A stretch of DNA of 62,626 nucleotides from a virus. The DNA is taken from positions 1 through 62,626 of IMG/VR virus record IMGVR_UViG_3300027822_000003; one strand, written 5' to 3'. Made by a program: the position numbers and the translations under genes. Shown piece after piece: positions 1 through 62,626 of the stretch; the stretch's first letter is position 1, and each line of letters opens with the position of its first letter. The notes below the pieces were generated by a model. It made no database searches. It had not been told where the DNA came from and was given only the letters and a program-made list of their open reading frames with translations.

Positions 1-127
1 GGGGTAATCGGTGGTCTTGGTGCTACCGTCCCGATCGGGATTGCGAAGGCCATTGCAGCTTTATTTGATGCTGACGATCCAGAAGAAGAAATGATCAAGT
101 GGGCGGAGGATGCATTTGGCGGCGGTA
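1..127. repeat. Terminal overlap copy 1 (identical to 62500-62626)
   Basis: Direct comparison: ggggtaatcggtggtcttggtgctaccgtcccgatcggg...gcatttggcggcggta occurs at both ends. Confidence 0.95.
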
Positions 128-747
128 AGCTGGCAAGGTACGGATTACCCGGACTGCTTGGGATATCCTTAAAAGGCAGTCTCGCTACAAGGTTTGATGT
201 TCCAGAAACAACCCTTGACTGGTTCGGAGCTCCCGGTAATGTTGTAGCAGACATATGGGACGGCACAAAAAATCTTACAAAAGGTTTTTACCGCGAGGGA
301 TTTGAGCAGATCGCTCCGGTTGCGGCAAGAAACATTTCCCGGGGTTTGCGTGAATCAAGGGAAGGTGTTACCACAAGAAGCGGTTCGCCTGTTTTCTTTG
401 GCAAGGATCGGCTTAAGGGCGACACGTACGATATGATGTTGCGCTGGCTGTCCTTCAATCCTACAGGCATTTCAGAGAAGCGCGAAATCCAATGGAATGA
501 ATACAAAACGATGGAGCGGTATAAAGAAAAACGGAGTGAATTATATAAACGATATAAAAGATTTTATTCTAAACCCCCAGGCAAGCGAAATACAAAAGAT
601 AAAGTTGACATTTTGGCCGATATAAGGGACTTCAATATAGAAGTGAAGCGCAAAAAAATATCACGCATTGTCAGGCCAATTACAAAACGGTCTATTAAAC
701 AGAGTATGCGGTCATTAAAACCGAGTAAACGTGAAAGGGAAAGATAA
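1..747 (+). CDS. C-terminal 248 codons of the giant polyvalent virion protein (continuation of 51070-62626 across the junction)
   Basis: Position 1 is in frame with track ORF 91-747. Position 62500 has the same phase (pos mod 3 = 1). Sequence reads GGVIGGLGATVPIGIAKAIAALF then KLARYGLPGLLG. Stop TAA at 745-747. Confidence 0.85.
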   Translation, partial: GVIGGLGATVPIGIAKAIAALFDADDPEEEMIKWAEDAFGGGKLARYGLPGLLGISLKGSLATRFDVPETTLDWFGAPGNVVADIWDGTKNLTKGFYREGFEQIAPVAARNISRGLRESREGVTTRSGSPVFFGKDRLKGDTYDMMLRWLSFNPTGISEKREIQWNEYKTMERYKEKRSELYKRYKRFYSKPPGKRNTKDKVDILADIRDFNIEVKRKKISRIVRPITKRSIKQSMRSLKPSKRERER

Positions 748-46882: not shown

Positions 46883-47174
46883 AGAGGGTACTACTCTATT
46901 ATTGACAAAAAATAGTCGGCTTCCTGAAGGGTATCGTTTAAAAGAGATTGAGCCATTTAAAACATTAAATGGCGGTTGCTTGCATCAAGATTGCCAAGTT
47001 GCAGGAAGTATACCAAAAAATACTGCTTTTATCCACAATCACTTTATTCCATCTTCTATTAGGACTCAAGGAATTTCAAGAAAAGGCTCCTGGTCTTCTA
47101 AAGAAATTCCAATGACCACACAAAAAAAAGAAAGTTTTTTAAAAAAACTTTTTAATAAATTATTTGAATCATAG
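46860..47174 (+). CDS. hypothetical protein
   Basis: ATG 46860 (MSHENILK) after a GGGGGGAG tract. Confidence 0.4.
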   Translation: MSHENILKEGTTLLLTKNSRLPEGYRLKEIEPFKTLNGGCLHQDCQVAGSIPKNTAFIHNHFIPSSIRTQGISRKGSWSSKEIPMTTQKKESFLKKLFNKLFES

Positions 47175-47195
47175 AGATATACCCTTGGTGAGAAT

Positions 47196-47339
47196 ATGAC
47201 AATACCAAAAATTAAAGAACCTACCATGTCGGCTGATAATGTTGACATTAGAAAGATTTATGATATTTTGAGAAGCATTAAGAGGGCGGTGGAATGGCTG
47301 GACACGGAAATCAAGAGAGTGGAGTCGCTGATTCCATAA
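47196..47339 (+). CDS. 47-aa helical micro-protein
   Basis: MTIPKIKEPTMSADNVDIRKIYDILRSIKRAVEWLDTEIKRVESLIP. Overlaps the next ORF's start. Confidence 0.3.
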   Translation: MTIPKIKEPTMSADNVDIRKIYDILRSIKRAVEWLDTEIKRVESLIP

Positions 47340-47851
47340 AAATTATTCCATATGTTAAGCAGGATGGTATTCCTTCTTTTCGTGATTCCGAGATTGTTTA
47401 TTTATGGGAAAAGGCTGTTCAAGAAAATCTTGATAACTTTATTTTGTTTGATATTGTAGAAAAAAATAAAACTTCTTTTTTGTATTATATGAAACATGTA
47501 AATATTCAACTTTTTATAATTTTTTTTAAAGAAAAACTTGCCGGTTTTGTTTGGCTATCAGATACCTTTTCAAAAAAAGCAAATATACATGGAATTCTTT
47601 TTAAAGAATTTTGGGGAGAAAAGGCTATTATGATAGGAAGGTTTGTGCTTAATTCTATTATAAATTTAAAATTTAAGGATGAATTTTTATATGATGTGCT
47701 TGTTGGAATTATCCCTACCGAAAATTTATCCGCTTGTTCTTTTGTGCCGAAAATAGGCATGCTTTATTCTGGGGAGATACCTTTTTTTTTATTTTCTGCT
47801 AAACAAAAAAAACAAGTTCCAGCGCATTTTTTTTATTATGCCAGAGGTTAA
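47294..47851 (+). CDS. GNAT-family (RimJ/RimL-like) N-acetyltransferase candidate
   Basis: AGFVWLSD...ANIHGILFKEFWGEKAIMIGRFVLNSII...VGIIPTENLSACSFVPKIGMLYSGEIP resembles the motif A/B region (..h..f..f.G...a........f......l.g.i...N..a..f..K.G....G.ip). Confidence 0.45.
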   Translation: MAGHGNQESGVADSIKIIPYVKQDGIPSFRDSEIVYLWEKAVQENLDNFILFDIVEKNKTSFLYYMKHVNIQLFIIFFKEKLAGFVWLSDTFSKKANIHGILFKEFWGEKAIMIGRFVLNSIINLKFKDEFLYDVLVGIIPTENLSACSFVPKIGMLYSGEIPFFLFSAKQKKQVPAHFFYYARG

Positions 47852-47857
47852 GAGTCT

Positions 47858-48535
47858 ATGGAAATAACGACAAAAATTATATACAACATGGAAACATGGG
47901 ATGTAATAGAAGAAGAATCTTTTGAGTATGATGGTGAAGTTAGCCTTTGTGGTAGCAGTGGTGGGCCATCGCAAAAAATAGATTATGAATATAATCGGCG
48001 AATGGCTGATCTGGCTGAACGCGAAACAGCTATGGCAGAAAAATATTTTGATGCTTGGAATCTTAGCCCAAGAAAATTGGAAGAAGAAACTGCCGCTGCT
48101 AATATAGATCTTTTGCCATTACAAACCAGAGAAGAAAAAGCCTCAATACCTCTTCGTGGAGAAACTGAAAGATTAGGCTTAAAGCATCAGCAAAAATTAA
48201 TGGAAAACAGCGAAAAATTTTTAAGAGACAGCGAAAAATTTTTAATAGAACGTGCGCCAGTTCAAACAGAATTTTTCAAACAAGCATTAACCGGGATTGA
48301 TGTTGGTAAGCGTAAAGAAGAGGCTGTTGCGGAGGTTGAACATGCATATAGTCAAGCAATGCCACAATATATGCAAAATCTTGGAAGGCGAGGGCTAACA
48401 GCCAGACCTGGAGATTTGCGTAAAGCGTCATTTGATAAAGCTAAAGCAAAAGCCGGAGCATCAACTCATGCTGGGATAACTGCTGAAGCTGAAAACTTTG
48501 AAAGGCTTAATCTTGCCAATAGCTTTAAGCAATAG
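47858..48535 (+). CDS. internal virion / ejection-module protein candidate
   Basis: 225-aa helical ORF. Call rests on position. Confidence 0.3.
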   Translation: MEITTKIIYNMETWDVIEEESFEYDGEVSLCGSSGGPSQKIDYEYNRRMADLAERETAMAEKYFDAWNLSPRKLEEETAAANIDLLPLQTREEKASIPLRGETERLGLKHQQKLMENSEKFLRDSEKFLIERAPVQTEFFKQALTGIDVGKRKEEAVAEVEHAYSQAMPQYMQNLGRRGLTARPGDLRKASFDKAKAKAGASTHAGITAEAENFERLNLANSFKQ

Positions 48536-48546
48536 GATATAAAAAA

Positions 48547-49134
48547 ATGATACAACCTTTTTACAATAGTCCCGACACCGATAGACTGAAAAGCCCGGCA
48601 ACACAAGGATTAGGCCGGGCGCGCGGTTTGTTGGGGAGTATGCAAAAGAAACAAAGTATCTCTGAGCCTCCAAAAACAGTAACGGGTGGGGTATTGTCTG
48701 GCGTTGGCGGAGGTGAACTTGGGTGGACGGTTGGCAAAAGTATTGGAGAAATAATACTGACATCTAAAACCGCAACAGAAACAGCCGCCGGTGTAAGTGG
48801 TGCAGCAGGCGGTGCAGCCGGTGCAGCAGGCGGTGCAGCCGGTGCAGCAGGCGGTGCTATGGGAACACTTGCTGTACCAAGTATAGGTGGTGCAGCAGGC
48901 GGTGCAGCAGCCGGTGCTATGGGAACACTTGCTGTACCAAGTATAGGCGGTGCAGCAGGCGGTGCAGCCGGTGCAGCAGGCGGTGCTATGGGAACACTTG
49001 CTGTACCAAGTATAGGTGGTGCAGCAGCCGGTGCAGGCGGTGCGGCAGCTTCCGGTGCGGCAAGTGGTAGTTTGGCCGGGCCAATTGGAGCGGCTATCGG
49101 TATAGGAGCAGGGCTTGCAATGTATTATTTGTAA
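48547..49134 (+). CDS. Gly/Ala-repeat hydrophobic virion protein
   Basis: Three copies of ...AAGGAMGTLAVPSIGGAAGGAA... ending GPIGAAIGIGAGLAMYYL. Confidence 0.5.
   Translation: MIQPFYNSPDTDRLKSPATQGLGRARGLLGSMQKKQSISEPPKTVTGGVLSGVGGGELGWTVGKSIGEIILTSKTATETAAGVSGAAGGAAGAAGGAAGAAGGAMGTLAVPSIGGAAGGAAAGAMGTLAVPSIGGAAGGAAGAAGGAMGTLAVPSIGGAAAGAGGAAASGAASGSLAGPIGAAIGIGAGLAMYYL
48797..49060 (+). repeat. nested coding tandem repeats (60/69-bp units containing 9/18-bp GGTGCAGC[AC]GG sub-repeats)
   Basis: ggtgctatgggaacacttgctgtaccaagtatagg starts at 48853, 48913 and 48982. Confidence 0.85.
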
Positions 49135-49148
49135 AGAAAGGGTGAAAG

Positions 49149-51044
49149 ATGGATAGCTGGGGTAGACCAGAGATTAGAGATTTCATAGGGGTTTCCAATA
49201 TTGTTAGAGGTATTGGTAATGATGTAAGGACATCAAGAGAGAACAAGCAAGCAACAGAATTAACCCAAAAATTTTTAAGAGACCCTAACGCCGATGTTAA
49301 CCAAGCAGCATTAGGGTACTCGCCTAAAGCCATAAAATCAGCGACAGGTGCGACAGCAGGGTTAAGCAATATCCAGGGAATGAGAAGAACTCTTGCTCAA
49401 CAAGGCCAACAAAGAAATGTTGAGAATCAACTTGCAAGCATGTCGGCTGAAGATTTATCGCAAATAGACCCTAAAGAATTTGGCCAGTTTGGTGATAACG
49501 CTTTTCATGCAAGGCAAACGGCGGCTACACTTCTTAATGATTATTCACAAATACCTGAAATAAAAGAAAGAATAAAAACTGGCAGAGTCAAGGAGTCTGC
49601 GGGGAAACATTCTGATTTCATTAAATTTTATAACAACATTGAGTCTGCTGTTAAAATAGGAGATGATAACAAAGCTTTGCAATTATTTTCAGCATTAACG
49701 GATCAATCACCTACTCCATATAGAACCGGAGAAATTAAAAACGGCAAAATAGAAGTTTTTATGGTTGAGGATGGAGAAAAGCAAGAATCTACTTGGATTT
49801 CTCCGCAAGAAGCTCTTGGAGAATTGTCAAAATTTAAAGATACAAAGAATTTTGTTGTTCAATCCATGCATGCAGCCGATGCAGCGAAACAATTAAATAT
49901 GGAATCAGCCTTAAACCCAATAGTATTTGTTAATCCCAAAACGAATAAAAGAATTAATGTTATTCGTAGTTTAAGAACAGATACCAATAATGTTGGTTAT
50001 GAAATTTTTGATGACAACGGAAGATTGGTAGATGTAACGGAAGACCCAAAGTATTTCACAAAACATGGTTTTAAAAAAGCAACAGCGGCAGGCAAACCTA
50101 TGACTGCGGCTCAAGCGGCAAAACAAGGACTTGCTGAACGAAAATATGCCAGGGAAGGCACATACACTACTCCAAAACAAAAATCTGATTTTAATGTAAA
50201 GGCTCTGAAGCTTGTACAGGAAAATTTGGCTATAGGTGAGTCTGTAACACAGGAAGCTCTTTGGAAAACATATGGACAGTTGCATGGCCTTGATGTAATA
50301 CCAGGAATAGGAGATAAAGCGGGGCAATTTTTGTTAACAGATGGGCAGGGTAATATGTATAATCAGTATGCTCAGAAATTAAAGCCAGCAGGCGGCGCAA
50401 AAGAAAAGAAATCTGGTCTGGCCACCAAGAATAGGATTAAACCAGGAGCTGGCGCAAAAACAAAAAAACCGCAAATAGGATTAAGCTCGAAGAAAAACCC
50501 ACAACAAAAAAAACAACAGTCATTCCAGAGATCAAAAATAACTGGTGATCCCAACAAGCCTGTTTTTGATACAAAAGATATTACAAGGGCTGCCAAGGCT
50601 ATATTTAAAGTTGGTATGAAAGCGAGTGACCTTGCCGATGCAGCGCGAGCGTATTTAATAAAAACAAAAAATAAAGTAACGGATGCTGCGGTTAATCAAA
50701 TAGTTAAAGCTGCAAAAGCAATGACCGCATCTCAGGCAAAAGCCAGAAAGCAATCATTCTCCGGCCCAGGATATGGAAAAAGAAAAGATGGAACGAAAAA
50801 AGGTAAAGGATTCTTAGGTGAATTAAAAAGACCCGATGGTAGAGTTTCAACTGAACTTTCTATAGGTGTAACTTTTGATGGGAAAGAAACAGAAATACCG
50901 ACACTTATCCCGACATTAACTCAAAAAGAAATAACTCTTTTGCTAAGAGGCGACAAGCCAACAAGGGAAATTGTAAAAAAATCAGTAGAACATGCTAAAA
51001 AAAGAATAAGACAAGGTAAAAGTCCCTTTAAAGAAGAAAAATAA
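49149..51044 (+). CDS. internal virion / ejection protein candidate
   Basis: 631-aa ORF. Lys-rich centre. C-terminal block GFLGELKRPDGRVSTELSIGVTFDGKETEIPTLIPTLTQKEI. Confidence 0.35.
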   Translation: MDSWGRPEIRDFIGVSNIVRGIGNDVRTSRENKQATELTQKFLRDPNADVNQAALGYSPKAIKSATGATAGLSNIQGMRRTLAQQGQQRNVENQLASMSAEDLSQIDPKEFGQFGDNAFHARQTAATLLNDYSQIPEIKERIKTGRVKESAGKHSDFIKFYNNIESAVKIGDDNKALQLFSALTDQSPTPYRTGEIKNGKIEVFMVEDGEKQESTWISPQEALGELSKFKDTKNFVVQSMHAADAAKQLNMESALNPIVFVNPKTNKRINVIRSLRTDTNNVGYEIFDDNGRLVDVTEDPKYFTKHGFKKATAAGKPMTAAQAAKQGLAERKYAREGTYTTPKQKSDFNVKALKLVQENLAIGESVTQEALWKTYGQLHGLDVIPGIGDKAGQFLLTDGQGNMYNQYAQKLKPAGGAKEKKSGLATKNRIKPGAGAKTKKPQIGLSSKKNPQQKKQQSFQRSKITGDPNKPVFDTKDITRAAKAIFKVGMKASDLADAARAYLIKTKNKVTDAAVNQIVKAAKAMTASQAKARKQSFSGPGYGKRKDGTKKGKGFLGELKRPDGRVSTELSIGVTFDGKETEIPTLIPTLTQKEITLLLRGDKPTREIVKKSVEHAKKRIRQGKSPFKEEK

Positions 51045-51069
51045 AAAGCAATCATTCGGACAATAAAAT

Positions 51070-54000
51070 ATGACACAAGAAACATACAACCCAGAAGAAT
51101 GGGGCGTAGCATCTTCTAATAAACAAAGGTTACCACTTGCGGATAGAAATAATAATCCTGGCAATTTAAAGTATGCTAACCAAAAAAAGGCATCAAAAGG
51201 AGAAGGTGGATTTGCTCGTTTTGACGCTCCCGTAGAGGGATTTCACGCCTTACAAGATCAGGTTGTCCTTGATTCTTCAAGAGGCCATACGCTTGGGAGT
51301 TTTATCAAAAAATATGCACCACCTTCCGAAAACAATACTGCAAACTATCTTTCATTTATGGAAAAAGAACTCGGTGCTAATGCAGACGCACTACTTTCTA
51401 CTCTTGGTGTAAATAAAATTTCTAATGCGATTGCTAAATTCGAAGGCGGGACGAAATCAGGCAAGCAGCCAGGAAAAAGGGAAACATACAATCCAGATGA
51501 ATGGAGTGTAAAACCACAGGATGAGATGGAAGCAGGTACCTATAACCCAGATGAATGGAGTTCGGAGCCTCTTGGAAGTGTTGGGGAACCTGATCCTGAA
51601 CCTAAAAGCACATTAGGTGTTTTCACAGAGGGCATAAGCAGGCTACCAAAAAATCTGGCTAAAGAAACAATCGGGCTATTCCAAGGCGCAAAAGGGGCGA
51701 GTGTTGCGGATCAAGGATTTCTTGATAAATGGTACAATAAAGTAGAGGCTGAGAATACCGCCCTAAGCGAAGAGGCTAAAGCTGGTGGCGGCAAATTCAT
51801 ACCTGGTGTATCAGATGAAGCTGTCAGCAGTGCGCTTTCAAGTTTGCCCTATACAGGTTTGGCAATGGCCGGTGCTACTGCCGGAGCCGCGGTCACTTCT
51901 CCAATCCCTATACCTGGGGCAAGGGTAGCAGGCGGCCTGGTCGGATCGCATCTTGCTACAAATAGGGTATCAGCTTATGCCGCTATGAACCGGAACCTTA
52001 AACGCCTAAACGACTTGAATATACAAACAACTGGCGAACCCATAACGATAGAACAAGAAAATGAATTTAAAGAGGTCTATGGTTCTGAAATTGGTAAAAT
52101 AGCTGATTGGGAATCTATCCCGGAAGCAGCTGGGACAGTAATAGAATTAGTTATATATGGCATAGGCTCTAAATTACCCGCGCCTATGAGAGAGAAAGCT
52201 GCAAAATTAGTAAGCAGTCTGATCAAGAATAAAATTGCGAAAGGTGCCGCAGTTAATTCGACAAAATTGCTCGGTACTCTTATCTCTGAAACAGCGGAAG
52301 AAGTCGTAAGTGGTATTGGCGGGGGTAATGTCGAGGCCGGGATGTGGGGAGAAGAACAGCAGGAATGGGATATCCCTACAGCATTAAAAACAGCAAAAGA
52401 GGTAGCCCCAACCGTTGCTGTGACAGCAGGGCTTGTGCATGGTGCTGGCACGGTCGCAGGTAAACTTTCCAAAAAAGAAAAACCAGAAGACCAGACAAAA
52501 GATAAAAAAGTTTTTGCAGATCAACTGAATGTCTTATCGGACGGATTAAAAAAATCAGATAACAAACTTGCCGACATAAGCACAACAGTTGATCTGCATT
52601 CTAATCTTGCTGATGATCCTAAAAAACAAGTTGCCATTGATAAGGTAATTTTGGAGGCAGCGGGGCAAGGATTACAAGACGGCACGTTAACTTCGGACAA
52701 TTTGACCGAGGTAGTACAACGATTACCAGAAGATGATCCACTAAGGATAGCCTTGACGCCTCAAGTTGAGGAAAAGCCGGTACCTGTTGAACCAACTAAG
52801 CCGGAGTTAATGCCGGAGCCGGAAGTAAGCGGCACTAAAACCATTCTTGAACAAATGCAGGAAGATAAAAGCCTTCCCGAAGAAAAAAAGCTTACTGGTG
52901 CAGAACGTAGACAGCAAAGAATTAATGCTGCTGGTGAGATAAAAAGACCAGCGGAGGTTATTAAAGACCATTATCCAGCGGGCAAAACCGTGACGATGGA
53001 AGAGATAGAAGGCTTACTCAAAAAAAGAAAAATTACCAATGAAAAAGATAAGGCCAGAATTGAGGAGTTATCAAAAGGTACTCTCCAAATGCCTATTGAT
53101 ATCGACATTAAAGCTAAAACACCCCAAGATAAATATAAAATAGATAAATCTCTTAATTTTATAGATACTGCTACAGAAAAATTAGGGGGTAAGCTCGCTA
53201 TCAATATTGTTGATAAGAATGGCAGGCCAATATCACCTGCCGGGGTTCGGGAACTTTCTTTAGGGGAAGATAAGCCGACTACGCAAATAGAAGGACAGCG
53301 CAATCTCGAAGCAATAGAAAAAGAAATCACAGACCGCTGGAAAAAATCCAGAACATTACCCGCCGGGAAAAAGAAATCTCAGATAGCCAACGAGATTGCA
53401 GTTTTAAATAATGAACTTGCGACCGCTATGAAATCGGCTGATAAGGAAGAGCGCGGTGGACGTGTTGCTCCTGAGCGTGGACGTAAAGAAAAGATTTTTG
53501 AACCGGTAACATCTGAACCTAAACCTGGTGAGCCTGAAAAAGAAATCCCAAAATCCCCAGATGGTAGATACCAAATTAGTAAAATCCAAAAGCCCAACCA
53601 GTCTGGAGTTAAAGGAGTACGTTATATCTATCCTGATAGAAACATGGGTATCTTAAAGGAAGAGGCCGATCCACAGGCAGCTTTTAAAACGCTTGAAGAA
53701 GCCATTGAGGGCGCAAAAAAAGATAGAAAACTGGATGATGCGAATAAGCTTTTCAGGGATAAACAAGACGCAAAAGATAAAATAGAAAAAGAAAAAGCTG
53801 ATAAAATTGAAGCAGAAAAGCGGGATATTGACGGATTCGGTGACAATTTATCAGCCATGCGAAAAGGTAAAGTCGTAAAAGATTTAAACAAGAAAGTTAA
53901 TATCGATGGCGTTCCAACTACATTAAAAGACTTAATCCGTAAAGAAGTAGCAGCAGACAGTGCTTTAACTATACCAGGGAATATCCTTGGGAAGCCTGAT

Positions 54001-57000
54001 GAACGCGGGTCAGTAATCGGGTTTGATGTTGGGAAGACTGGTGGCAAGTATGCTCAATATCTTATTGATAGAAAAGGTAAAGGCAAAACTGAAATTTTAC
54101 CGAAACCAGTTTTAAAAAAAACACCAGAAAAGGAAGAAACCAAACCAAAAAGTAAGATAGCTTCTGAAATGTCAGCAAATGAAATGTTGGCTGAATGGGA
54201 TAAACAAGCAGCGCAGATAGAAACACCAACGCCAAAAGACAAGTTATCTGAAACAAAAGCACATCTTGCAAAAGCTGCCGATGCTTTCAAGGCTATTAAT
54301 GATATCATTGGCAAAAAAGGTGCTATTTCTAATGAGGTCGATGAACGGAATTGGTCACAGATAAAACCTCTTCTCAAAGTTGCTTTTGATGAAATTATAG
54401 CGGCTGGTAAAAGTGGGGCTGAATTTGTTGCAATTGCGATGAAAAGTCTAAGCCCTGCCGGTAAACCATACTTTGAAAAGTTTGTTAAAGAAGAAATAGG
54501 AAAGGAGGCCACCAATGTTACCGATAATGTTAGAGGGGGCAAACCACAGAAAACAACGGTTAAAGATGATACAGAACGCATTGGAATGGAAGGCCCCGCA
54601 GATGTATCAAGGGTTGAAACAAAAGAGGGAGTTGTTAAACTTCCTAAAGGAGACGGAAGCACAGGTAATGTCAGTCTTCAGGGAAGAAAAAAAGGAAAAG
54701 ATTTGGTCGAAAAATCTAAGCCAAGTCAAAAACCCGATAGCGCAGGTACAAAAAACAGAAATGTTGATAAAGAGAATATGGGAAGAGACGCTGGAAACGT
54801 TTCTGGATTTCAGCGATCAGACTATATAATCAAGCCCGGCACGTTAGAACGAGAAGGTAGCTGGAAAGATGCCGCAACAAATAACCTTGATGCTATTGAA
54901 TTGTTTAAAAAAATAAATAAAGAAAAAAGGCTTGCTACTCTAAAAGAACAAAAAATTCTTGCTAAATATGTAGGATGGGGAGCGTCCGAGTTAGCGAATA
55001 ATATGTTCCCAGGGTATGCACAACATGGAGAGCTTTTACCAGATTGGGCAGAAATTAAATGGTTGCCGAACATAAAGCGTCTTGTTGATCTTCTGTCACC
55101 TGAAGAAATAAAAACTGCTGCGAAGAGTACTCAATATGCTCATTATACAAACGAGCCAATAATTAAATCTATTTACAAAGCTCTTGCCAGAATGGGGTTT
55201 AAGGGCGGAAAGATTCTTGAGCCTGGTATGGGGATAGGTAATTTTGTAGGGTTACTTCCTGCCAAGATGCGGAAAACATCAAATTATACAGGGGTTGAGA
55301 TGGATTCCATTTCTGCCGGGATAGCAAAGCTGTTATATCCTACACAAAATATGTTGCAATCGGATTTTGTTAAACAAGCCTTCCCAAAAAACTTTTTCGA
55401 TGCTGCAATCGGCAACCCTCCATTTGGAGGAATAAAAATACTTGGGGACCCTGAATACAGGAAGCATAGGTTCTCTTTACACAATTTCTTTTTTGCCAAA
55501 ACAATTGACAGGGTAAAGCCTGGAGGGCTTTTAATTTTTGTTACCAGTCGATATACAATGGATGCAAAAACAGATAAAGCCAGGCAATATATATCTGACA
55601 AAGCAGATTTGTTGGGCGCAATAAGACTCCCTCAAACAGCTTTCCTTGAAAGTGCAGGTACAGAAGTTGTAACGGATGTTTTGTTTTTACAGAAAAGAGA
55701 ACCGGAAGAAAAAAAACAGGGTGAGGCTTGGTCGAAACAAAAAGATGTTTCTATTGGCAATGAAGTATCTTTAATCAATGAATATTTCGTTAACAATCCC
55801 GACATGGTGCTTGGTGAGCATTCCCTTGAAGGTAAAATGTATGGGAAAAATCAATATACAGTAAAACCTATTGATGGGGAAATAGAAGATCTTTTTGAAC
55901 AGGCGACAAAAAAATTGCCTGCCAATGTTTACCAAAAAGTTTCAAACAAAGTTAAAGAAAAATTTAAAAAACAATCTATAATTGAAAGAGACTTTGATCC
56001 CAAAAATAAAAAAGAAGGCGGTATCTATTTAAAAGACGGGTCCGTTATGAAGGTTGATTTCGGTTCTGGTGTTTCTGTTGATTCACTGCATAAAGGAATT
56101 ACGCCTAAAACAACTGGTTTTTTAAAGAGTTATATTAAACTAAGAGATGCTTTAAAACTTTCACATAAAGCGCAACTCGAAAATGGAGATTGGGAAAAAG
56201 CATTAATAACTCTTAATAAAGAGTATGATAACTTTGTTAAAAAACATGGTAAGATCAGATCGTTTACTACGACATTGCGTAAAAAAAAGAATGCCGAAGG
56301 AATAACGGAAAAAGTTGAATACCGTAATTATAAAAACCAATCCCTTGTTGAGATAGATTGTGAATCTTCTCTTGTTTTAACATTAGAAAACATAACGAAT
56401 AATGGAGAAATTACTAAGTCAAATGTTCTTAAAGGTAGGACAGTACAGAAGCCAACTACTCCTATAATTAAATCTGTCCCTGATGCTTTCGCCGTTTCGT
56501 TAGACATGGTAGGAACCCTTGACATTGATCATATATCAAGTTTAATTAAAAAATCAAACAAGGAAGTTGTAGAAACTCTTGGCAATTTAATTTATAAGGC
56601 TCCTGATGGGTCTGGTTATATAATGTCAGATGAATACTTATCCGGCAACGTTGTAAAAAAACTTCAAGAAGCAAAGGCAGCCGCAGTTTTGGATTCTGCT
56701 TTTGAACGCAATGTTGTAGCCCTAAAAAAAACACAACCAGAACCATTAAGCCCAAAACAAATTACAATAACGCCAGGAGCCACATGGATACCTATTGAAT
56801 ATTATAGCCAATTTGCTACAGAAATTCTTGAACTGCCAAATACAGAAGTCACATATCAGCCAATTGATAATTCGTGGAAAGTGTTACCCAAAGAAGATAC
56901 GAGACCAAGCTGGCGCAGGCGTGGAGATAGACAAGGTTATTCTCCACAAGAGTTAAGGGATGCTGCAAATGAATGGGGAACAGAACACCGTGGGCCTAAT

Positions 57001-60000
57001 GAAATTTTTGATTCAATTTTGAATAACAGAAGCATCAGAATCACATACACTATTGATATAGAAGGCGGTGGGAAAAAAACTGTTTTTGATGCTGAAGCTA
57101 CTGCCACGGCAAATGAAATTGTTAAAAAGATTAGGAACCGGTTTAATTCATGGGCATGGGAAAATGTTGATAGGGCAAGCGATTTAATAGATATTTATAA
57201 TTCAAAAATAAATGTTATCAAAGGCAGGAAATTCGATGGTTCACACTTAACCCTTCCAGGGATGAGTAATCATTTTATCCCGTATGATCATCAAAAACGT
57301 GTTATTTGGCGGATACTACAGTCTGGGAATACCTATATGGCACATTCTGTAGGAGCAGGTAAAACCTTTATTATGATCTCTGCTGGTATGGAAATGCGCC
57401 GGTTAGGAATGATTAATAAGCCTCTTTATGTTGTCCCTAAACATATGCTTGGACAATTCGCGCAGGAGTTTCAGGAGCTTTATCCTATGGCGAATATTCT
57501 TGTAGCTGATGAAAAGAATTTTTATACAGAAAATAGAAAACGATTTGTAGCGAAAGCGACTTTAAACGATCCCGATGCCGTTATTTTAACTCATTCAAGT
57601 TTTGGTATGCTTGGAGTTAAAGAAGAAACATTAGCACCTGTTAGAGATGAGTTTTTAGAGCAAATGAGATTTTCATTATCTGAAATGGAAGATGATGATG
57701 AACCAAAAATGAAAATTAAACGGATGGAAAAAAGGATTGAGCAGGCAGAGCAACGGTTTAACTCCTTACTTTCAGATGGTGACAATGTTGTTTCTTTTGA
57801 AGAACTTGGTGCAGATTTTGTATTCGTGGATGAAGCTCATGAATTTAGAAAATTAGATTTCGCTACAAATAGGCAAATAAAGGGAATAGATTCTCAGGGT
57901 TCAAAAAAGGCTATTGACCTTTATATAAAAACACTTTGGTTGGAAAAGCAAAACCGTGGGCGATCACATGCTTTTGCGTCTGGGACACCTATTGTAAATA
58001 CTTTGGGGGAGTTGTACACTCTCCAAAGATTTTTTGATCAAGGGGAAATGGAAGAAGATGGAATAAACCATTTTGATGCATGGGCGAATATGTTCGGAGA
58101 GCCTGTATCTGATTATGAAATGACCGCTTCTGGAAAATATGAACAGGTAGAAAGGTTTTCAAAATTTGTTAATCTCCCTGAGTTAATGTCTCGCATTAGA
58201 ATGTTTACAGATGTGTTAACAAGTTCCCAATTAGGGACAAGGGTTAATCGACCTAAAATCAAGAATGGAGCGGCACAGATAGTTCTTGCACCAGCGAATG
58301 AAAGGCTTAAAGCATATCAAAAAGATAATTTACAACCAAGAATAGAAGCAAGCCGAGCTTGGAAGCCATCTCAGGGTCAACCTGGGAACCCCGATCCTAT
58401 TATTAACATAATAACTGATGGGAAATTAGCTTCTATTGATATGCGATTTGTTGACCAAGGGGCCAAAAATGATCCTGAAAGCAAATTAAACATATGGATA
58501 GATGGAATTATTAAAACATATAAAGAAACAAAAGATTTTGTTTATGCTACAGAGTATGGGACATCCCAAAAATCAAAAATAAAAGGCGGGTGCCAAATAT
58601 GTTTTTATAATAATGGGTTTGGGAGCGGTGTAATTAAGCGTAGAGGGTTTGATTCTAAAGCATTTGTAATGCAAAGGCTTAAAGACGCAGGTATTTCCTC
58701 AAGAAATGTTGGTTGGATTGATGATTATAAAACTGCCCCAGCAAAGCAAGCGTTCTTAAAACTCGTACGCAATGGGAAAAAGAGAATATTACTTGGTTCC
58801 GCAAAGAAGATGGGAACAGGTATTAATGCTCAAAACAGGTTAACGCATTTGCATTATTTGGATGCGCCTTGGTATCCTGCTGACGTTGAACAGCCAGAAG
58901 GCAGAATAATCCGGCAAGGGAACCAAAACACAGAAGTATCTTTATACAGGTACGCTACAAAGGGAAGTTATGATGCAACTTTGTGGCAAATGGTTGCAAG
59001 GAAAGCCAGGTTTATAGACCAAGTATGGGTTGGTGATAAGAATGTAAGATCAATTGAGGATATATCAGAAGCTAGTCAATATGAAATGGCTGCGGCGTTG
59101 GCCTCTGGAGATAAAAGAGTAGTTGAACTTGTTGGGATAAAAGCCGATATTGAAAGATTCCACCTTCTTAAAACTGCACACCAGGATAATCAAACAAAAT
59201 TAGCATCCGATAAGCGTAATCTTGAAAAAAGTATTTCTATAACTCAAGGATGGCTTGAAGATTTTGGAACCATTGAAGATTCCTTGCCTGGTTTTATTGG
59301 TGCAGAGATTGACGGGAGAGTTGGGAATGAAACATTTACGGAACGGAAAAAGTTTGGGGCCGCACTAAAAAAACAAATCAAACAAGTTTTTGTTGAGAAG
59401 AATGAAAGCCTTTCTATGCTTGGCTCTATTAGTGGAATAGATATTAATGTTGAAACTATAGAGGGCGTAACGAGACAGATAACAGCCCCAAAGTTAGATA
59501 TTGAAATTTCAAAAAATGATTTTCGCCGTACAATTGATAATACCTTTACATCACAAGAAGGATGGGACGCTACCGATGCCGTTGGGTTAACAAAAAAAAT
59601 TACCAATACAATCAATGATCTTTCCTCTGTTAAATCAGAATCAGAAGAAAAGCTTGATCAAGACAAAAAGAAAATTGAAAGGATAAACAAAAAGCTTGGG
59701 GCCCCCTTTGAGCATGCAAAAGAATTTACAGAAAAAATTGCCGAAGCGGCATCCCTTGAAAAAGAATTATCCGAAGAAGAACCTGTTATCCCAGAAACTA
59801 AAGATATCCAATTTGAAACAGCCGGAACAAAAGGCCGGCCACTAACAAACGAGGATATAAACAAAGCCTTCGGCAAAATGAAAAATGTCACTACAGGCCA
59901 GGATAAGGCAAATAATTTCTGGTTTCAGTTTAAAGGCTTCCCGAAATTTACGATCCTTGAGGTGGATTCAATTAATGATCGGGTAGGTCTTACAGATAAA

Positions 60001-62626
60001 AAATCAAAAAAACAGCCAAAAATAGGAGCCTTTTTACGTGAATCGAGACAGATTTGGTTCAAGACCGGAGGTGTGGGCGTAAAAGCCGATATAGGAACGC
60101 TGCATCACGAGAACTGGCATTTGTTTAAAAAAATGGGTGTTATATCAAGAAAAGATTTAAGAGCCGTTAAGAGAGCAATCAGGCACAGTGGTAACTTAGG
60201 AATTATCACAGAAGAAACAGAAGCCTCATGGATAGCAGATGCCGCAAAGAGCAGGGAATATGCCAGAGATTCCGCTATAGGTCGCATCTTGCAAAAGATT
60301 GGTGACTTCTTTGACGCTATGGTTAATATAGTTGCGACTACCAGTCGAGGCGTTATGCGTAAGATGGAAAGCGGAAAAATGGTTACGCAAGATGCTGATG
60401 TTGGGCAGATGTCCTTATCGCCTGCTATGGCTTTTGAAACCCAAGACGTAGACCTATCAGAAGAAATAGAAGAGGAAGACACAGCCTTTCAGCAAGCAAT
60501 TGATTTAATTTCAGCACATTGGGGCAAGCAAGGCAAATATACCAATGAGCGTAAAAAGCTGACTTTCCTTGAGCATCATCTCGGAACCACAATGTATAAC
60601 GCCAAGCGTATTGGCGGGTGGTATAACAGATTTTACAATGTAATTCGGAATCTGGGTCAGTATAAATTCGAGCAGCAAAACCGGCTTAGAGGTGAGGGTG
60701 ATGCTTCTCTATTCGCACCGTTGGAAACATTTTCCAAAAAAAACAAAACTGAATATCGTAAATTAAGAAAATACCTGGTCAACAAGGATATTAATGCTGA
60801 AGGTTACAAGGTTAGGCCGACATTAGAAACAGGCGCATTATCTGAAGGTGCATATGATATAATCAACGAGAAAGGCACGGTCATTGATACCCAGACAACT
60901 GAAGATGAAGCCTTTAATGAAGTATGGGAGATGGAGGCCGATGCAACCGACTTTACGGATGCAGGGAAAGAGGCATTACTTAATTTCCGGAAAATGACCC
61001 GCAACCTGTACAAACATTATGCCAAGGGCATGAATGAGATTATTGAAATGGCGCGGTTATCAGGTCAGCCTCCGCCGAAAGTAACAACCATAGTAGGTGG
61101 CAAGCCGGTTAAGATAAGTTTAAAACAAGCCATTCAAGATATGGGCGATAGGCAGGGATATTACTTTCCAAGAATTCGGGAATCAGGAGAATGGAAGATT
61201 GAAGGCCGGAAAGAAGGCATGCCAAATCAAATGGATTTCTTTGCATCAAAAGCACTATCAAAAGGATACGCTCAAAAATTAAGACGCCAAGGATACAAGG
61301 TTGAATCAACTCATTCAGGGGCTTTCTCAGAAGACCTGTTCCAAACGCTGGCTCCACTTCTTGCTCAAGAACAGGTAGTCAATAGCGTAATAGACAGAGT
61401 GTCTAAAAACGAAGATTTTGACGCTGTGTATGCTGATATGTTTGCCAAGCAATATGCTGAGATGTTAAAATCTCATGGCTCCCGGGCAAGGATGATCGGC
61501 CGGTCAGATGCTATCGGGATTGATGTAAAACGTGGGTATGAAACTGATCCAGTCAAGGCTATTGCGATTGCCACGGAAGCCGCTGCTGGCGGCTATGCTA
61601 AACAACAGATTGCGATTAACGCAATGAAAGCAATCACGGGTCGAGATTTATCCTGGGAAGAATACCAGAAGGACAATCCCGGTAAAAAACATGAAGATTA
61701 TTTAAAGGACATCCGTAAACGCGGCGCCGATGCTTCCAGGCAACAAACTGAATACAAGGAAGCGACTGAAACGCTACAGGATATTTTAAAGAACCAGGAA
61801 CTTGCAGACAGGATTGTTGGAACGCTTAAAGGTATGGCTGTTGTTTGGTATTTAGGAGCCAGGGTGAGTTCCGCTGCTGTGAATTTAACAAATATGGTTA
61901 TGGGTGTACCTGCTACGATGGTTGGAGAATTATCAGACAAGGCCAGTAAGATTTCATTCAGACAAGCTTTCAAGCATATAGGCAGTGCTGGAATAGCATA
62001 CGGTAAATTCAGAACTGGAACATTAAAAGATATTGGTCAGTCTGATTTATTCCAAGAAATAGAAAAGCGGGGCTGGGACGCTCCGCAGTTCAATATGGAA
62101 GCGTTAAATGCCCTCCAGAACAAGTACGGTAAGGCCTGGGGCCAAGTTATAGACAAATCTATGTGGATGTTCGGGGTAACGGAAAAGATCAACAGAGCAA
62201 CCACTATAGGCGCAAATTACATGGCCTTATGTAAAAAGAATAATGTCCGGCTACGAGATACTTCCGGCAAACTTCATGAAACATTGTTGCTTAAAGCCAG
62301 GAATGCTTCTGATGTAGCCCACGGTGTATATGAAAAAGGGAACCGACCGTACCATATGAGGGGTGAACATATTGGAGCAAGAGTTTTACAGATGACTTAC
62401 GTGTTCCAAACATTCACCCACAATTATCTGCAAGAAATGATAAGGCTTGGGCTTGTTAAAAAGCAATATGGCGCAGCGGCATACATGGCCTTATCTGGGG
62501 GGGTAATCGGTGGTCTTGGTGCTACCGTCCCGATCGGGATTGCGAAGGCCATTGCAGCTTTATTTGATGCTGACGATCCAGAAGAAGAAATGATCAAGTG
62601 GGCGGAGGATGCATTTGGCGGCGGTA
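51070..62626 (+). CDS. giant polyvalent virion protein, about 4,058 aa in total (runs off the window and continues at 1-747)
   Basis: A TAA at 51064-51066 is followed by ATG 51070. My hand translation of frame 1 met no stop to 62626. The track reports no + ORF here, as expected for an ORF that lacks a stop inside the window. Domains: NNPGNLKY...YAPPSENNT (51150-51330); TM/Gly-Ala segments (about 51840-52460); MTase motif I EPGMGIGNF (about 55218-55244) and motif IV NPPF (55414-55425); helicase GAGKT (57352-57366), DEAH (57829-57840) and QPEGRIIRQGN (about 58890-58925); HHENWH (60103-60120). Confidence 0.85.
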   Translation, partial: MTQETYNPEEWGVASSNKQRLPLADRNNNPGNLKYANQKKASKGEGGFARFDAPVEGFHALQDQVVLDSSRGHTLGSFIKKYAPPSENNTANYLSFMEKELGANADALLSTLGVNKISNAIAKFEGGTKSGKQPGKRETYNPDEWSVKPQDEMEAGTYNPDEWSSEPLGSVGEPDPEPKSTLGVFTEGISRLPKNLAKETIGLFQGAKGASVADQGFLDKWYNKVEAENTALSEEAKAGGGKFIPGVSDEAVSSALSSLPYTGLAMAGATAGAAVTSPIPIPGARVAGGLVGSHLATNRVSAYAAMNRNLKRLNDLNIQTTGEPITIEQENEFKEVYGSEIGKIADWESIPEAAGTVIELVIYGIGSKLPAPMREKAAKLVSSLIKNKIAKGAAVNSTKLLGTLISETAEEVVSGIGGGNVEAGMWGEEQQEWDIPTALKTAKEVAPTVAVTAGLVHGAGTVAGKLSKKEKPEDQTKDKKVFADQLNVLSDGLKKSDNKLADISTTVDLHSNLADDPKKQVAIDKVILEAAGQGLQDGTLTSDNLTEVVQRLPEDDPLRIALTPQVEEKPVPVEPTKPELMPEPEVSGTKTILEQMQEDKSLPEEKKLTGAERRQQRINAAGEIKRPAEVIKDHYPAGKTVTMEEIEGLLKKRKITNEKDKARIEELSKGTLQMPIDIDIKAKTPQDKYKIDKSLNFIDTATEKLGGKLAINIVDKNGRPISPAGVRELSLGEDKPTTQIEGQRNLEAIEKEITDRWKKSRTLPAGKKKSQIANEIAVLNNELATAMKSADKEERGGRVAPERGRKEKIFEPVTSEPKPGEPEKEIPKSPDGRYQISKIQKPNQSGVKGVRYIYPDRNMGILKEEADPQAAFKTLEEAIEGAKKDRKLDDANKLFRDKQDAKDKIEKEKADKIEAEKRDIDGFGDNLSAMRKGKVVKDLNKKVNIDGVPTTLKDLIRKEVAADSALTIPGNILGKPDERGSVIGFDVGKTGGKYAQYLIDRKGKGKTEILPKPVLKKTPEKEETKPKSKIASEMSANEMLAEWDKQAAQIETPTPKDKLSETKAHLAKAADAFKAINDIIGKKGAISNEVDERNWSQIKPLLKVAFDEIIAAGKSGAEFVAIAMKSLSPAGKPYFEKFVKEEIGKEATNVTDNVRGGKPQKTTVKDDTERIGMEGPADVSRVETKEGVVKLPKGDGSTGNVSLQGRKKGKDLVEKSKPSQKPDSAGTKNRNVDKENMGRDAGNVSGFQRSDYIIKPGTLEREGSWKDAATNNLDAIELFKKINKEKRLATLKEQKILAKYVGWGASELANNMFPGYAQHGELLPDWAEIKWLPNIKRLVDLLSPEEIKTAAKSTQYAHYTNEPIIKSIYKALARMGFKGGKILEPGMGIGNFVGLLPAKMRKTSNYTGVEMDSISAGIAKLLYPTQNMLQSDFVKQAFPKNFFDAAIGNPPFGGIKILGDPEYRKHRFSLHNFFFAKTIDRVKPGGLLIFVTSRYTMDAKTDKARQYISDKADLLGAIRLPQTAFLESAGTEVVTDVLFLQKREPEEKKQGEAWSKQKDVSIGNEVSLINEYFVNNPDMVLGEHSLEGKMYGKNQYTVKPIDGEIEDLFEQATKKLPANVYQKVSNKVKEKFKKQSIIERDFDPKNKKEGGIYLKDGSVMKVDFGSGVSVDSLHKGITPKTTGFLKSYIKLRDALKLSHKAQLENGDWEKALITLNKEYDNFVKKHGKIRSFTTTLRKKKNAEGITEKVEYRNYKNQSLVEIDCESSLVLTLENITNNGEITKSNVLKGRTVQKPTTPIIKSVPDAFAVSLDMVGTLDIDHISSLIKKSNKEVVETLGNLIYKAPDGSGYIMSDEYLSGNVVKKLQEAKAAAVLDSAFERNVVALKKTQPEPLSPKQITITPGATWIPIEYYSQFATEILELPNTEVTYQPIDNSWKVLPKEDTRPSWRRRGDRQGYSPQELRDAANEWGTEHRGPNEIFDSILNNRSIRITYTIDIEGGGKKTVFDAEATATANEIVKKIRNRFNSWAWENVDRASDLIDIYNSKINVIKGRKFDGSHLTLPGMSNHFIPYDHQKRVIWRILQSGNTYMAHSVGAGKTFIMISAGMEMRRLGMINKPLYVVPKHMLGQFAQEFQELYPMANILVADEKNFYTENRKRFVAKATLNDPDAVILTHSSFGMLGVKEETLAPVRDEFLEQMRFSLSEMEDDDEPKMKIKRMEKRIEQAEQRFNSLLSDGDNVVSFEELGADFVFVDEAHEFRKLDFATNRQIKGIDSQGSKKAIDLYIKTLWLEKQNRGRSHAFASGTPIVNTLGELYTLQRFFDQGEMEEDGINHFDAWANMFGEPVSDYEMTASGKYEQVERFSKFVNLPELMSRIRMFTDVLTSSQLGTRVNRPKIKNGAAQIVLAPANERLKAYQKDNLQPRIEASRAWKPSQGQPGNPDPIINIITDGKLASIDMRFVDQGAKNDPESKLNIWIDGIIKTYKETKDFVYATEYGTSQKSKIKGGCQICFYNNGFGSGVIKRRGFDSKAFVMQRLKDAGISSRNVGWIDDYKTAPAKQAFLKLVRNGKKRILLGSAKKMGTGINAQNRLTHLHYLDAPWYPADVEQPEGRIIRQGNQNTEVSLYRYATKGSYDATLWQMVARKARFIDQVWVGDKNVRSIEDISEASQYEMAAALASGDKRVVELVGIKADIERFHLLKTAHQDNQTKLASDKRNLEKSISITQGWLEDFGTIEDSLPGFIGAEIDGRVGNETFTERKKFGAALKKQIKQVFVEKNESLSMLGSISGIDINVETIEGVTRQITAPKLDIEISKNDFRRTIDNTFTSQEGWDATDAVGLTKKITNTINDLSSVKSESEEKLDQDKKKIERINKKLGAPFEHAKEFTEKIAEAASLEKELSEEEPVIPETKDIQFETAGTKGRPLTNEDINKAFGKMKNVTTGQDKANNFWFQFKGFPKFTILEVDSINDRVGLTDKKSKKQPKIGAFLRESRQIWFKTGGVGVKADIGTLHHENWHLFKKMGVISRKDLRAVKRAIRHSGNLGIITEETEASWIADAAKSREYARDSAIGRILQKIGDFFDAMVNIVATTSRGVMRKMESGKMVTQDADVGQMSLSPAMAFETQDVDLSEEIEEEDTAFQQAIDLISAHWGKQGKYTNERKKLTFLEHHLGTTMYNAKRIGGWYNRFYNVIRNLGQYKFEQQNRLRGEGDASLFAPLETFSKKNKTEYRKLRKYLVNKDINAEGYKVRPTLETGALSEGAYDIINEKGTVIDTQTTEDEAFNEVWEMEADATDFTDAGKEALLNFRKMTRNLYKHYAKGMNEIIEMARLSGQPPPKVTTIVGGKPVKISLKQAIQDMGDRQGYYFPRIRESGEWKIEGRKEGMPNQMDFFASKALSKGYAQKLRRQGYKVESTHSGAFSEDLFQTLAPLLAQEQVVNSVIDRVSKNEDFDAVYADMFAKQYAEMLKSHGSRARMIGRSDAIGIDVKRGYETDPVKAIAIATEAAAGGYAKQQIAINAMKAITGRDLSWEEYQKDNPGKKHEDYLKDIRKRGADASRQQTEYKEATETLQDILKNQELADRIVGTLKGMAVVWYLGARVSSAAVNLTNMVMGVPATMVGELSDKASKISFRQAFKHIGSAGIAYGKFRTGTLKDIGQSDLFQEIEKRGWDAPQFNMEALNALQNKYGKAWGQVIDKSMWMFGVTEKINRATTIGANYMALCKKNNVRLRDTSGKLHETLLLKARNASDVAHGVYEKGNRPYHMRGEHIGARVLQMTYVFQTFTHNYLQEMIRLGLVKKQYGAAAYMALSGGVIGGLGATVPIGIAKAIAALFDADDPEEEMIKWAEDAFGGG
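62500..62626. repeat. Terminal overlap copy 2 (identical to 1-127)
   Basis: Same 127-nt string as the window start. The odd length fits a de Bruijn k-mer overlap from circular assembly. Confidence 0.95.

Follow-up and report, generated by a model that had tools for sequence, protein, structure and literature searches.

A DarB-type methylase-translocase cassette within a 4,058-aa phage protein, a probable co-injected anti-restriction module

Introduction

According to Iyer et al. (2017), the "DNA methylase-helicase dyad", for which DarB of phage P1 is the archetype, ranks third in prevalence among the modules of polyvalent proteins, and it is defined by an LPD36 domain, an EcoKI/TaqI-like N6-adenine methylase and a SWI2/SNF2 ATPase (PMC5512222). 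Here we describe such a cassette in the viral DNA stretch IMGVR_UViG_3300027822_000003 of IMG/VR, which has a length of 62,626 nucleotides (nt); the whole of this stretch is called the window below. The cassette is encoded by the central part of a giant open reading frame (ORF) of an uncultured phage, and its protein product, the giant protein, probably enters the host cell together with the phage DNA and protects it from restriction.

Two of the closest described proteins were studied at the level of the virion. P1 DarB was found in virions by mass spectrometry. It is a head protein present in ~40 copies per virion, has a capsid-targeting signal at its N-terminus and is assumed to enter the cell (PMC9024508). 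The Dar system shields only the DNA which was packaged in the same particle and is directed against type I restriction systems and BREX (PMC12707154), and this protection is credited to head-packaged, co-ejected Dar proteins (PMC12707154, PMC12810830). The same model of protection in cis was proposed for the whole dyad family (PMC5512222). The second protein is gp69 of phage JC1 (4,515 aa), which mass spectrometry revealed in virions purified with CsCl (PMC9144972).

Results and Discussion

Identification of the cassette in the giant protein

A sequence-only reading of the window had proposed that the giant ORF contains, at positions 55090-59010, a DarB-like N6-adenine methyltransferase fused to a DEAH/SNF2-type helicase. 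All eight peptide strings that it quoted (Table 1) were found, each of them once and all in one frame of one ORF (nt 55219-58926), and the claimed spacing of 60 amino acids (aa) from motif I to NPPF and of 588 aa from PGGLLIFVTS to the Q motif is correct. The location was thus right, while the boundaries have to be moved outwards, because the conserved unit is wider and covers approximately nt 54781-59781 (aa 1238-2904). The methyltransferase assignment is upheld by profile matches, by fold comparison and by direct comparison with P1 DarB. The second assignment stands as far as a DEAH/SNF2-type ATPase is concerned, but this enzyme is better read as a translocase on double-stranded DNA (dsDNA) than as a helicase. 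Judged from its sequence and predicted folds, the region is almost certainly a DarB-type methylase-helicase dyad comprising LPD36, methylase, middle region and SNF2 translocase.

The PHROG profile 10089, which is annotated as "DarB-like antirestriction", matches aa 1157-3023 of the giant protein with an E-value of 0 and 1719 bits (profile positions 1476-3324 of 4647). Pfam searches, suggested in the earlier reading as a check, gave matches above the curated cut-offs for Eco57I (31.9 bits, aa 1429-1514), SNF2-rel_dom (29.4 bits, aa 2086-2368) and ResIII (26.1 bits), and a weaker match for Helicase_C (aa 2546-2617). When the giant protein was compared by BLASTP with gp75 of phage Bcep22, only aa 1238-2904 could be aligned (with gp75 aa 1555-3177, 45% identity over 1,667 aa). 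The alignments with the closest database proteins begin at aa 1012-1166 and end at approximately aa 2904, and in the two closest viral contigs (L008 and L009, 74% identity) aa 1016-2903 alone are aligned (from nt ~54115). The BLAST comparison with P1 DarB resulted in three collinear blocks with 25-30% identity and E-values of 4e-20, 7e-19 and 2e-11. They correspond to the methylase (aa 1358-1546, DarB 91-278), to lobe 1 of the ATPase (aa 2011-2458, DarB 771-1265) and to its lobe 2 (aa 2567-2682, DarB 1468-1582).

For the analysis of single residues the protein was aligned with Bcep22 gp75, P1 DarB and twelve database homologues, and two further sets of 30 sequences with 32-72% identity were used. 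All catalytic residues lie in columns of the 30-sequence alignments that are invariant or almost invariant, and this holds for motif I and NPPF of the methylase as well as for Walker A, DEAH and the motifs III and VI of the ATPase. In addition, AlphaFold2 (AF2) models of aa 1240-2050 and aa 2030-2920 were used; their predicted local distance difference test (pLDDT) values are 84.6 and 78.6, respectively. The comparison of these models with known structures by Foldseek did not reassign the motifs to unrelated folds and agrees with the methylase and SNF2 assignments. In sequence searches of the PDB no solved structure of any DarB-type protein was found.

The segment upstream of the methylase is helical in the AF2 model (model residues 26-114) and harbours the GxG(G/A/S) motif of LPD36 in the form GWGA (aa 1302-1305, nt 54973-54984); G63, G65 and A66 are nearly invariant in a 30-sequence alignment. 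The methylase itself contains a YAHYTNE helix (aa 1356-1362), motif I with the sequence LEPGMGIGNF (aa 1383-1392), motif IV with the sequence NPPF (aa 1449-1452) and the string PGGLLIFVTS (aa 1484-1493). With the model of the methylase half, Foldseek returned HsdM as the top match in the PDB, along with TaqI, M.BseCI, CamA and BsaXI (E-values from 3e-9 to 1e-7), and TaqI was also matched in the sequence-profile search of the PDB (E-value 6.5e-7). Since motif I precedes NPPF and the nearest folds are those of HsdM, TaqI, M.BseCI and CamA, the enzyme was assigned to the gamma class. Between the two enzymes lies a family-conserved region. Homologues carry the precomputed Pfam assignments PF28553 (WH_1) and PF28554 (DUF8437), which are given without coordinates, and we infer that both belong to this inter-domain region (aa 1561-2059), which possibly serves for DNA binding or target recognition.

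The ATPase shows the motifs Q (HQ, aa 2074-2075), Walker A (GAGKT, aa 2095-2099), DEAH (aa 2254-2257), III (SGTP, aa 2304-2307), V (GTGIN) and VI (QPEGRIIRQGN, aa 2608-2618), and in the AF2 model a long helical and beta-hairpin insert is located between motif III and lobe 2. The matches of the ATPase half in the PDB include ISW1, CSB, SMARCAD1, PBAF, INO80 and Mot1 (E-values from 1e-15 to 3e-13), and nearly all of the top 50 fold matches are enzymes of the SNF2 family. These similarities to SNF2 remodellers argue for a dsDNA translocase of the SNF2 clade and against a strand-separating helicase. The helicase-associated tail which follows is kept, up to approximately aa 2904, in gp75 and in all close homologues.

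Table 1. Coordinates of the predicted features of the giant ORF and of the peptide strings quoted in the sequence-only reading. Positions refer to the window; for the strings the first nucleotide is given.
Feature	Position (nt)	Strand	Basis or remark
Giant ORF, first 3,852 codons	51070..62626	+	ATG at 51070 directly after an in-frame stop; open to the window end
Giant ORF, C-terminal continuation over the circular junction	1..747	+	Stop codon ends at 747; terminal repeat and frame continuity
N-terminal lysozyme/transglycosylase-like domain, aa 15-135	51112..51474	+	PHROG and PDB profile matches
K/E/A/G-rich region, aa 136-1237	51475..54780	+	Final ~220 aa (from aa 1016) conserved in closest relatives
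DarB-type methylase-translocase cassette, aa 1238-2904	54781..59781	+	gp75 alignment, phrog_10089, L008/L009
LPD36-like alpha-helical domain	54862..55101	+	Upstream of methylase; GxG(G/A/S) motif; AF2 helices
Gamma-class N6-adenine DNA methyltransferase core	55102..55749	+	Pfam Eco57I, invariant columns, Foldseek, TaqI sequence match
EPGMGIGNF	55219		
DAAIGNPPFGG	55399		
PGGLLIFVTS	55519		
Inter-domain region, aa 1561-2059, mixed beta and helical, family-conserved	55750..57246	+	AF2 pLDDT mostly >85; many invariant columns
SNF2-clade superfamily 2 (SF2) ATPase, two RecA-like lobes with helical inserts	57247..59139	+	Pfam, motif alignment, Foldseek
YDHQKRVIWRIL	57283		
HSVGAGKTF	57343		
FVFVDEAHEFRK	57817		
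LLGSAKKMGTGINAQ	58789		
LDAPWYPADVEQPEGRIIRQGNQ	58858		
Helicase-associated tail, aa 2691-2904: long helix, beta-sandwich-like unit, helices	59140..59781	+	AF2 residues 653-873
Poorly conserved region, aa 2905-3363, HExxH-containing	59782..61158	+	No homologue; one viral relative
C-terminal "PLxRFG / tail-700" domain, aa 3364-4058	61159..62626, then 128-744	+	NCBIfam NF032893

Comparison with known systems

The giant protein and P1 DarB (2,255 aa) have in common the order of a GxG(G/A/S) helical segment, a gamma-class NPPF methylase, a spacer and an SNF2-type ATPase, with a spacer of similar length between methylase and ATPase (about 650-680 aa). All catalytic motifs are shared as well, and both genes adjoin head genes. 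The phages differ, since P1 is a phage-plasmid of the myovirus type, whereas no sheath or tube matches were found among the ORFs scanned here.

The overall architecture resembles that of gp75 of Bcep22 and gp69 of JC1 (Lessievirus) and of the related Ralstonia podophages. Their genes are likewise giant ORFs (4,500-4,600 aa) which end the virion block, their N-terminus is of the peptidoglycan-hydrolase type, and the central cassette is 45-48% identical over ~1,670 aa. Two further virion genes are Bcep22-like, with gp58-like and gp67-like internal virion proteins. Outside of the cassette, however, the giant proteins are different. The domains SLT (aa 74-165), LPD3 (aa 3233-3337) and LPD38 (aa 4283-4487) of gp75 were not detected in the window protein, and conversely gp75 is devoid of the PLxRFG domain. 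Only three window ORFs, that of the cassette included, match the Bcep22 genome and the genomes are otherwise unrelated; the GC content is 38% here in comparison to ~65% in Bcep22-like phages.

The published definition of the dyad (PMC5512222) applies to the window protein with respect to LPD36, the NPP(Y/F) methylase and the C-terminal SNF2 ATPase with helical inserts. In line with the same description, the dyad is part of a multi-domain phage protein which is encoded near packaging and late genes and has a lysozyme-type and possibly a zincin-like HExxH domain. The combination of lysozyme-like domain, long linker, dyad, HExxH region and PLxRFG domain, however, was not matched to a described example.

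Proteins of ~1,700 aa from rhizobial, sphingomonad and other plasmids and integrative and conjugative elements show 37-40% identity over the full length of a 1,427-aa query and contain the same motifs. In contrast to the giant protein they are stand-alone or fused to ArdC and have no virion domains, and their elements conjugate as single-stranded DNA (ssDNA).

More distant similarities exist to type I restriction-modification (R-M) systems (HsdM and HsdR) and to DISARM (DrmMI and DrmD), in which an HsdM-like or gamma-class methylase is also paired with an SF2 motor on dsDNA. The cassette differs from them by the absence of a nuclease and of an HsdS-type subunit, with scores far below the family cut-offs, and its role would be the opposite one, namely counter-defence borne by the invader. 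A Pfam scan of the giant protein detected no nuclease domain. The promiscuous methylases M.EcoGIX and M.BceJIII, which belong to plasmid leading regions and deposit N6-methyladenine (m6A), are functional analogues, since they guard entering mobile DNA early and in an orientation-dependent, cis-like manner; they differ in that they are ssDNA-specific, not fused to a helicase, made in the recipient and not delivered as protein (PMC7736820). M.EcoGIX was also considered as a DarB-type fusion and was rejected, because the paper shows an ssDNA-specific enzyme and no helicase fusion (PMC7736820).

Distribution and exchange of the cassette

Relatives of the cassette are abundant. Out of 8,000 candidate protein clusters which were scored, 3,232 match at E<=1e-10, many of them being ~1,700-aa proteins of Rhizobiales and sphingomonads annotated as "helicase-related protein" or "N12 class adenine-specific DNA methylase". 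The sequence-only reading had connected this domain order with conjugative plasmids, and indeed 2,144 plasmid records match, 722 of which are typed as conjugative; the top plasmid match is a 5,555-aa "PLxRFG domain-containing protein" of a Massilia plasmid. A bacterial contig (P0002) encodes a 65% identical relative which is fused to an ArdC N-terminal antirestriction domain. Using TBLASTN with the 1,427-aa query, 157 phage records were found, 77 of which cover at least 80% of the query. The best matches are proteins annotated as DarB-like of Burkholderia Bcep22-like and of Ralstonia phages (46-48% identity over 100% of the query).

In IMG/VR a scan with the single protein found nothing, and a profile-based scan revealed 293 contigs encoding relatives, mostly in ORFs of 4,000-6,000 aa. 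Of these contigs the best 80 were analyzed further, and all counts for viral relatives given in this work refer to them. In 72 of the 80 the relative resides in an ORF of at least 3,000 aa, and the median length of the complete ORFs is 4,716 aa. NPPF is present in 79 and replaced by NPPY in the remaining one, a DExH/Q box is present in all 80, Walker A in 78, and a pattern matching GxG(G/A/S) in 79. This near-universal retention of both active sites suggests that both activities are needed.

Thus, the earlier observation is confirmed as correct but ordinary, as the same cassette exists in hundreds of phages and thousands of plasmids. For annotation it means that the best-conserved 1,667 aa of the protein form a counter-defence cassette of two enzymes, which P1 DarB, Bcep22-like phages and thousands of plasmids have as well. 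The wider question is the chemistry of the whole DarB-type family (methylation, target sequence and need for the motor), rather than that of this copy.

The cassette seems to be mobile between giant proteins. The closest contigs L008 and L009 have no detectable similarity to the N-terminal ~1,000 aa and the C-terminal ~1,150 aa of the giant ORF. Further, the GC content at third codon positions is 0.275 within the cassette and reaches 0.40-0.41 for aa 2905-4058, with the step at the 3' breakpoint, which suggests that the C-terminal part was derived from a source with higher GC content. Taken together, 74% identity between unrelated flanks and the step in third-position GC indicate that the cassette behaves as an exchangeable block. 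Its boundaries are cleanly set by the mosaic breakpoints at approximately aa 1016/1238 and 2904, and this compact copy with low GC content could be a convenient construct for biochemistry.

Two homologues, P0014 (aa ~1182-1549) and P0042, carry an insertion of ~370 aa with a LAGLIDADG domain (PF14528). It is located in Walker A at GAGK|T (~window 57364), where the BLAST high-scoring segment pairs stop at aa 2098 and resume at aa 2099. The insertion resembles an intein that interrupts the P-loop of the SNF2 motor.

Possible role in the protection of incoming DNA

The position of the gene in the virion block and an N-terminus similar to virion and ejection lysozymes point to a virion context for the giant protein. 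We infer that it is packaged in the particle and ejected, leaving together with the DNA. Penetration of the envelope and ejection would probably be the tasks of its lysozyme-like N-terminus and its PLxRFG C-terminus. After arrival in the cytoplasm, the SNF2 motor could load on the entering duplex and track along it using host ATP, while the linked methylase would deposit m6A on the DNA with host S-adenosylmethionine (SAM). Together with methylation or instead of it, the motor might block or strip complexes of type I restriction systems, and perhaps also of BREX. The outcome would be protection in cis, before phage gene expression, of only that genome which arrives with the protein. The sequence-only reading had cautiously put forward action in cis on incoming DNA, by methylation or by displacement or occlusion of restriction complexes, and this corresponds to the standard hypothesis for the family. 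We estimate the probability that the giant protein is such a co-injected, cis-acting anti-restriction protein at roughly 0.7. With regard to methylation versus motor-driven occlusion, a mechanism relying on both active sites is favoured by their invariance.

Several points weigh against this proposal. Methylation by P1 DarB is undemonstrated, and the mechanism of DarB "has not been defined" (PMC11109961); in addition, restriction alleviation induced by DNA confounds the plasmid-based tests of DarB (PMC11109961). In P1 DarB, which is a stand-alone protein, the capsid-targeting signal comprises 30 aa at the N-terminus, whereas the cassette described here starts at approximately aa 1238 of 4,058, so that targeting as in P1 is not applicable to a cassette located more than 1,200 aa from the N-terminus. 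Moreover, P1 DarB needs DarA, Hdf, DdrA, DdrB and Ulx for packaging, and no homologue was found: searches of the giant protein by BLASTP and of the complete window by TBLASTN returned none of DarA, Hdf, DdrA, DdrB, Ulx and Sit, apart from a chance-level match to Hdf (E-value 0.014). Lessieviruses were likewise reported to be without the partner Dar proteins of P1 (PMC9144972). Finally, there is a small departure from the family description in the methylase. The conserved QYAHYT helix is present, but the next residue is N at the position where the dyad definition expects a TP cap ("HYTN" in the giant protein versus "YYTP" in P1). Among the viral relatives the residue following T is S in 56, P in five and N in three, whereas TP is found in P1 DarB and in the plasmid forms.

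Alternatively, the SNF2 translocase could act as a motor for DNA internalisation. In this case the two ends of the giant protein, the lysozyme-like N-terminus and the hydrophobic PLxRFG C-terminus, would tether it in an ejected trans-envelope complex, and it would reel the genome into the cytoplasm as the engine of DNA delivery in this class of phages; methylation would be a by-product or a coupled, protective marking of the passing DNA. There is precedent in gp16 of phage T7, an ejected protein with a transglycosylase domain which is implicated in DNA entry. The residence of the cassette in ORFs of mostly 4,000-6,000 aa (at least 3,000 aa in the 72 cases mentioned above) would be in line with such a motor, and so would the lysozyme or transglycosylase domains that are present at least in the giant protein, in Bcep22 gp75 (SLT) and in a BFVD match annotated as "LT_GEWL domain containing protein". 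It would also account for the exchange of the intact cassette between otherwise unrelated giant proteins, and SNF2 enzymes are dsDNA translocases according to the fold matches and the literature (PMC5512222). However, the reported phenotype of P1 mutants with a deletion of darB is sensitivity to restriction on EcoB and EcoK hosts and not loss of viability (PMC11109961). The cassette is also found in the ~1,700-aa stand-alone proteins of conjugative plasmids, the DNA of which enters by type IV secretion, and an internalisation motor would not explain why the active site of the methylase is so strictly conserved. We therefore consider it unlikely that this is the main function.

Another possibility is that the cassette methylates replicated or packaging DNA in the late phase of the preceding infection, so that the virion DNA would already be modified; if the protein is in the virion at all, this would then be incidental. 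Many phages have orphan methylases which modify their own DNA in the producer cell. The gene belongs to the late structural block, so that the protein would be abundant during packaging, and DNA methylated in advance would genetically also appear as protected in cis. On the other hand, modification in the producer cell would not require an enzyme fused with lysozyme-like and ejection-type domains. Homologues were shown to be genuine components of the virion (PMC9144972, PMC9024508), and the protection by Dar is assigned to co-ejected head proteins (PMC12707154, PMC12810830). This explanation is, in our opinion, also an improbable one.

We assign a rather low likelihood to a non-catalytic shield or decoy, in which the HsdM-like methylase and the motor coat the DNA or titrate type I complexes of the host or collide with them, with no need for methyl transfer; the pair would then equal a type I enzyme lacking the nuclease and the specificity subunit. 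The fact that type I HsdM subunits are the closest folds of the methylase half would fit to it, and physical occlusion is the preferred hypothesis in a review on R-M systems (PMC12707154). Further, plasmids with darB mutated in the predicted catalytic residues still alleviated restriction by EcoKI, although the plasmid DNA, rather than the protein, turned out to be responsible for this effect (PMC11109961). However, the invariance of the SAM-binding and NPPF residues across very divergent relatives argues for catalysis.

A phage-borne defence or restriction-like module of the DISARM DrmD/DrmMI or type ISP/III kind, for superinfection exclusion or host takeover, was suggested by weak local matches to DISARM DrmD, DpdE, MADS MAD2 and a PLD-type anti-phage protein, but this is most improbable and was rejected, because the matches are limited to generic helicase C-lobe or methyltransferase segments, the scores (DrmD 29.9 bits versus a cut-off of 610, PLD anti-phage protein 41.1 versus 1100, MAD2 28.9 versus 720) are 10- to 25-fold below the cut-offs, P1 DarB and gp75 yield the same weak matches, and the gene context is virion-structural with no defence island.

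Remaining parts of the giant protein

The N-terminal domain was recognized by phrog_873 ("endolysin", E-value 3e-18) and phrog_7182 ("tail injection transglycosylase", E-value 3e-14), and in the PDB by the N-terminus of Gp29 (9vvp_L, E-value 1.5e-7) and by an endolysin (7q47, E-value 1.6e-3); the Pfam scan of the giant protein gave no SLT match at the N-terminus. The peptide TYNP(E/D)EW is repeated three times around this domain, at aa 5, 139 and 157 (nt 51082-51102, 51484-51504 and 51538-51558). The region between the lysozyme-like domain and the cassette (aa 136-1237) has no Pfam, NCBIfam or PADLOC match.

Downstream of the cassette, a search with aa 2905-3367 against 5.8 billion proteins revealed no homologue at E<=1e-3. 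This region contains the HExxH motif HENWH (aa 3013-3017, nt 60106-60120) ~110 aa past the cassette. In its sole viral relative (L010, 37% identity over aa 3010-3445) the motif is kept as HELGH, and Bcep22 gp75 also harbours an HExxH motif (LLHEAFH, aa 3552) downstream of its cassette. The region, which has no profile match, may be a zincin-like peptidase of the type common in polyvalent proteins.

The C-terminal domain was matched by NF032893 in two halves with 63 bits each, each of them under the cut-off of 100 bits. It is found in 20 of the 80 viral giant ORFs, every time at the C-terminal end, and in the Massilia plasmid protein of 5,555 aa with the PLxRFG annotation. Just one segment of this domain (aa 3806-3832, nt 62485-62565) is strongly hydrophobic; it is rich in Gly and Ala and could serve for membrane insertion.

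The circular genome and the gene neighbourhood

The giant ORF noticed in the sequence-only reading does not end at the window edge. The first 127 nt of the window are identical to nt 62500-62626, and this direct terminal repeat indicates a circularly closed assembly with a unit genome of 62,499 bp, in which the ORF runs over the junction to the stop codon at 747. The complete ORF comprises 12,177 nt (4,058 aa), so that a single gene occupies roughly one fifth of the phage genome, and no other long open frame exists at the 3' end of the window. Its start was assigned to the same position by the gene callers in two public metagenome assemblies containing the same phage. One of them (ENA ERZ27237539) has a contig of 62,490 bp with an identical upstream gene of 631 aa (window 49149-51044) followed by the giant ORF, and the other (JGI 3300001750) has a 15-kb fragment of the phage. 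Antisense ORFs within the giant gene (for example 54054-54662, minus strand) were rejected as genes, because relatives were matched only via the conserved sense strand. Scans of 46500-62626 for promoters and terminators gave counts equal to the shuffle expectation and thus no sign of internal transcription units. A tRNA search found none, hence there is no host clue from tRNAs.

Genes for TerL, portal, major capsid protein and an internal virion protein are located upstream of the giant gene, while the replication genes are located elsewhere in the genome. Downstream, on the same strand, follows a tailspike-like gene with a right-handed beta-helix (PF13229, E-value 5.5e-11, window 5770-7320). 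The PHROG search left the four large ORFs at 1991-7320 without a match. The region gave no match in a MEGABLAST search against 50,697 phage records. Judging from these comparisons, the phage lineage is otherwise novel, and the familiar cassette sits within its block of virion genes.

Some further genes of the window were noted. An LVIVD-repeat protein is encoded at 42756-44690 (PF08309, E-value 1e-17), and this protein and the beta-helix protein, which flank the giant gene, are probable receptor-binding or tail proteins. The leftward early-gene block includes a gene for a radical-SAM-domain protein (13170-14150, minus strand; phrog_1802, E-value 3e-13), which may have a role in DNA or nucleotide modification or an auxiliary role unrelated to the cassette. 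Finally, two adjacent ORFs of 336 and 405 aa at 19416-21640 match positions 6-301 and 330-738, respectively, of the 743 positions of phrog_4412 ("exonuclease V"), the 405-aa ORF also matching a Dda-like helicase; the pair represents either a split gene or a frameshift.

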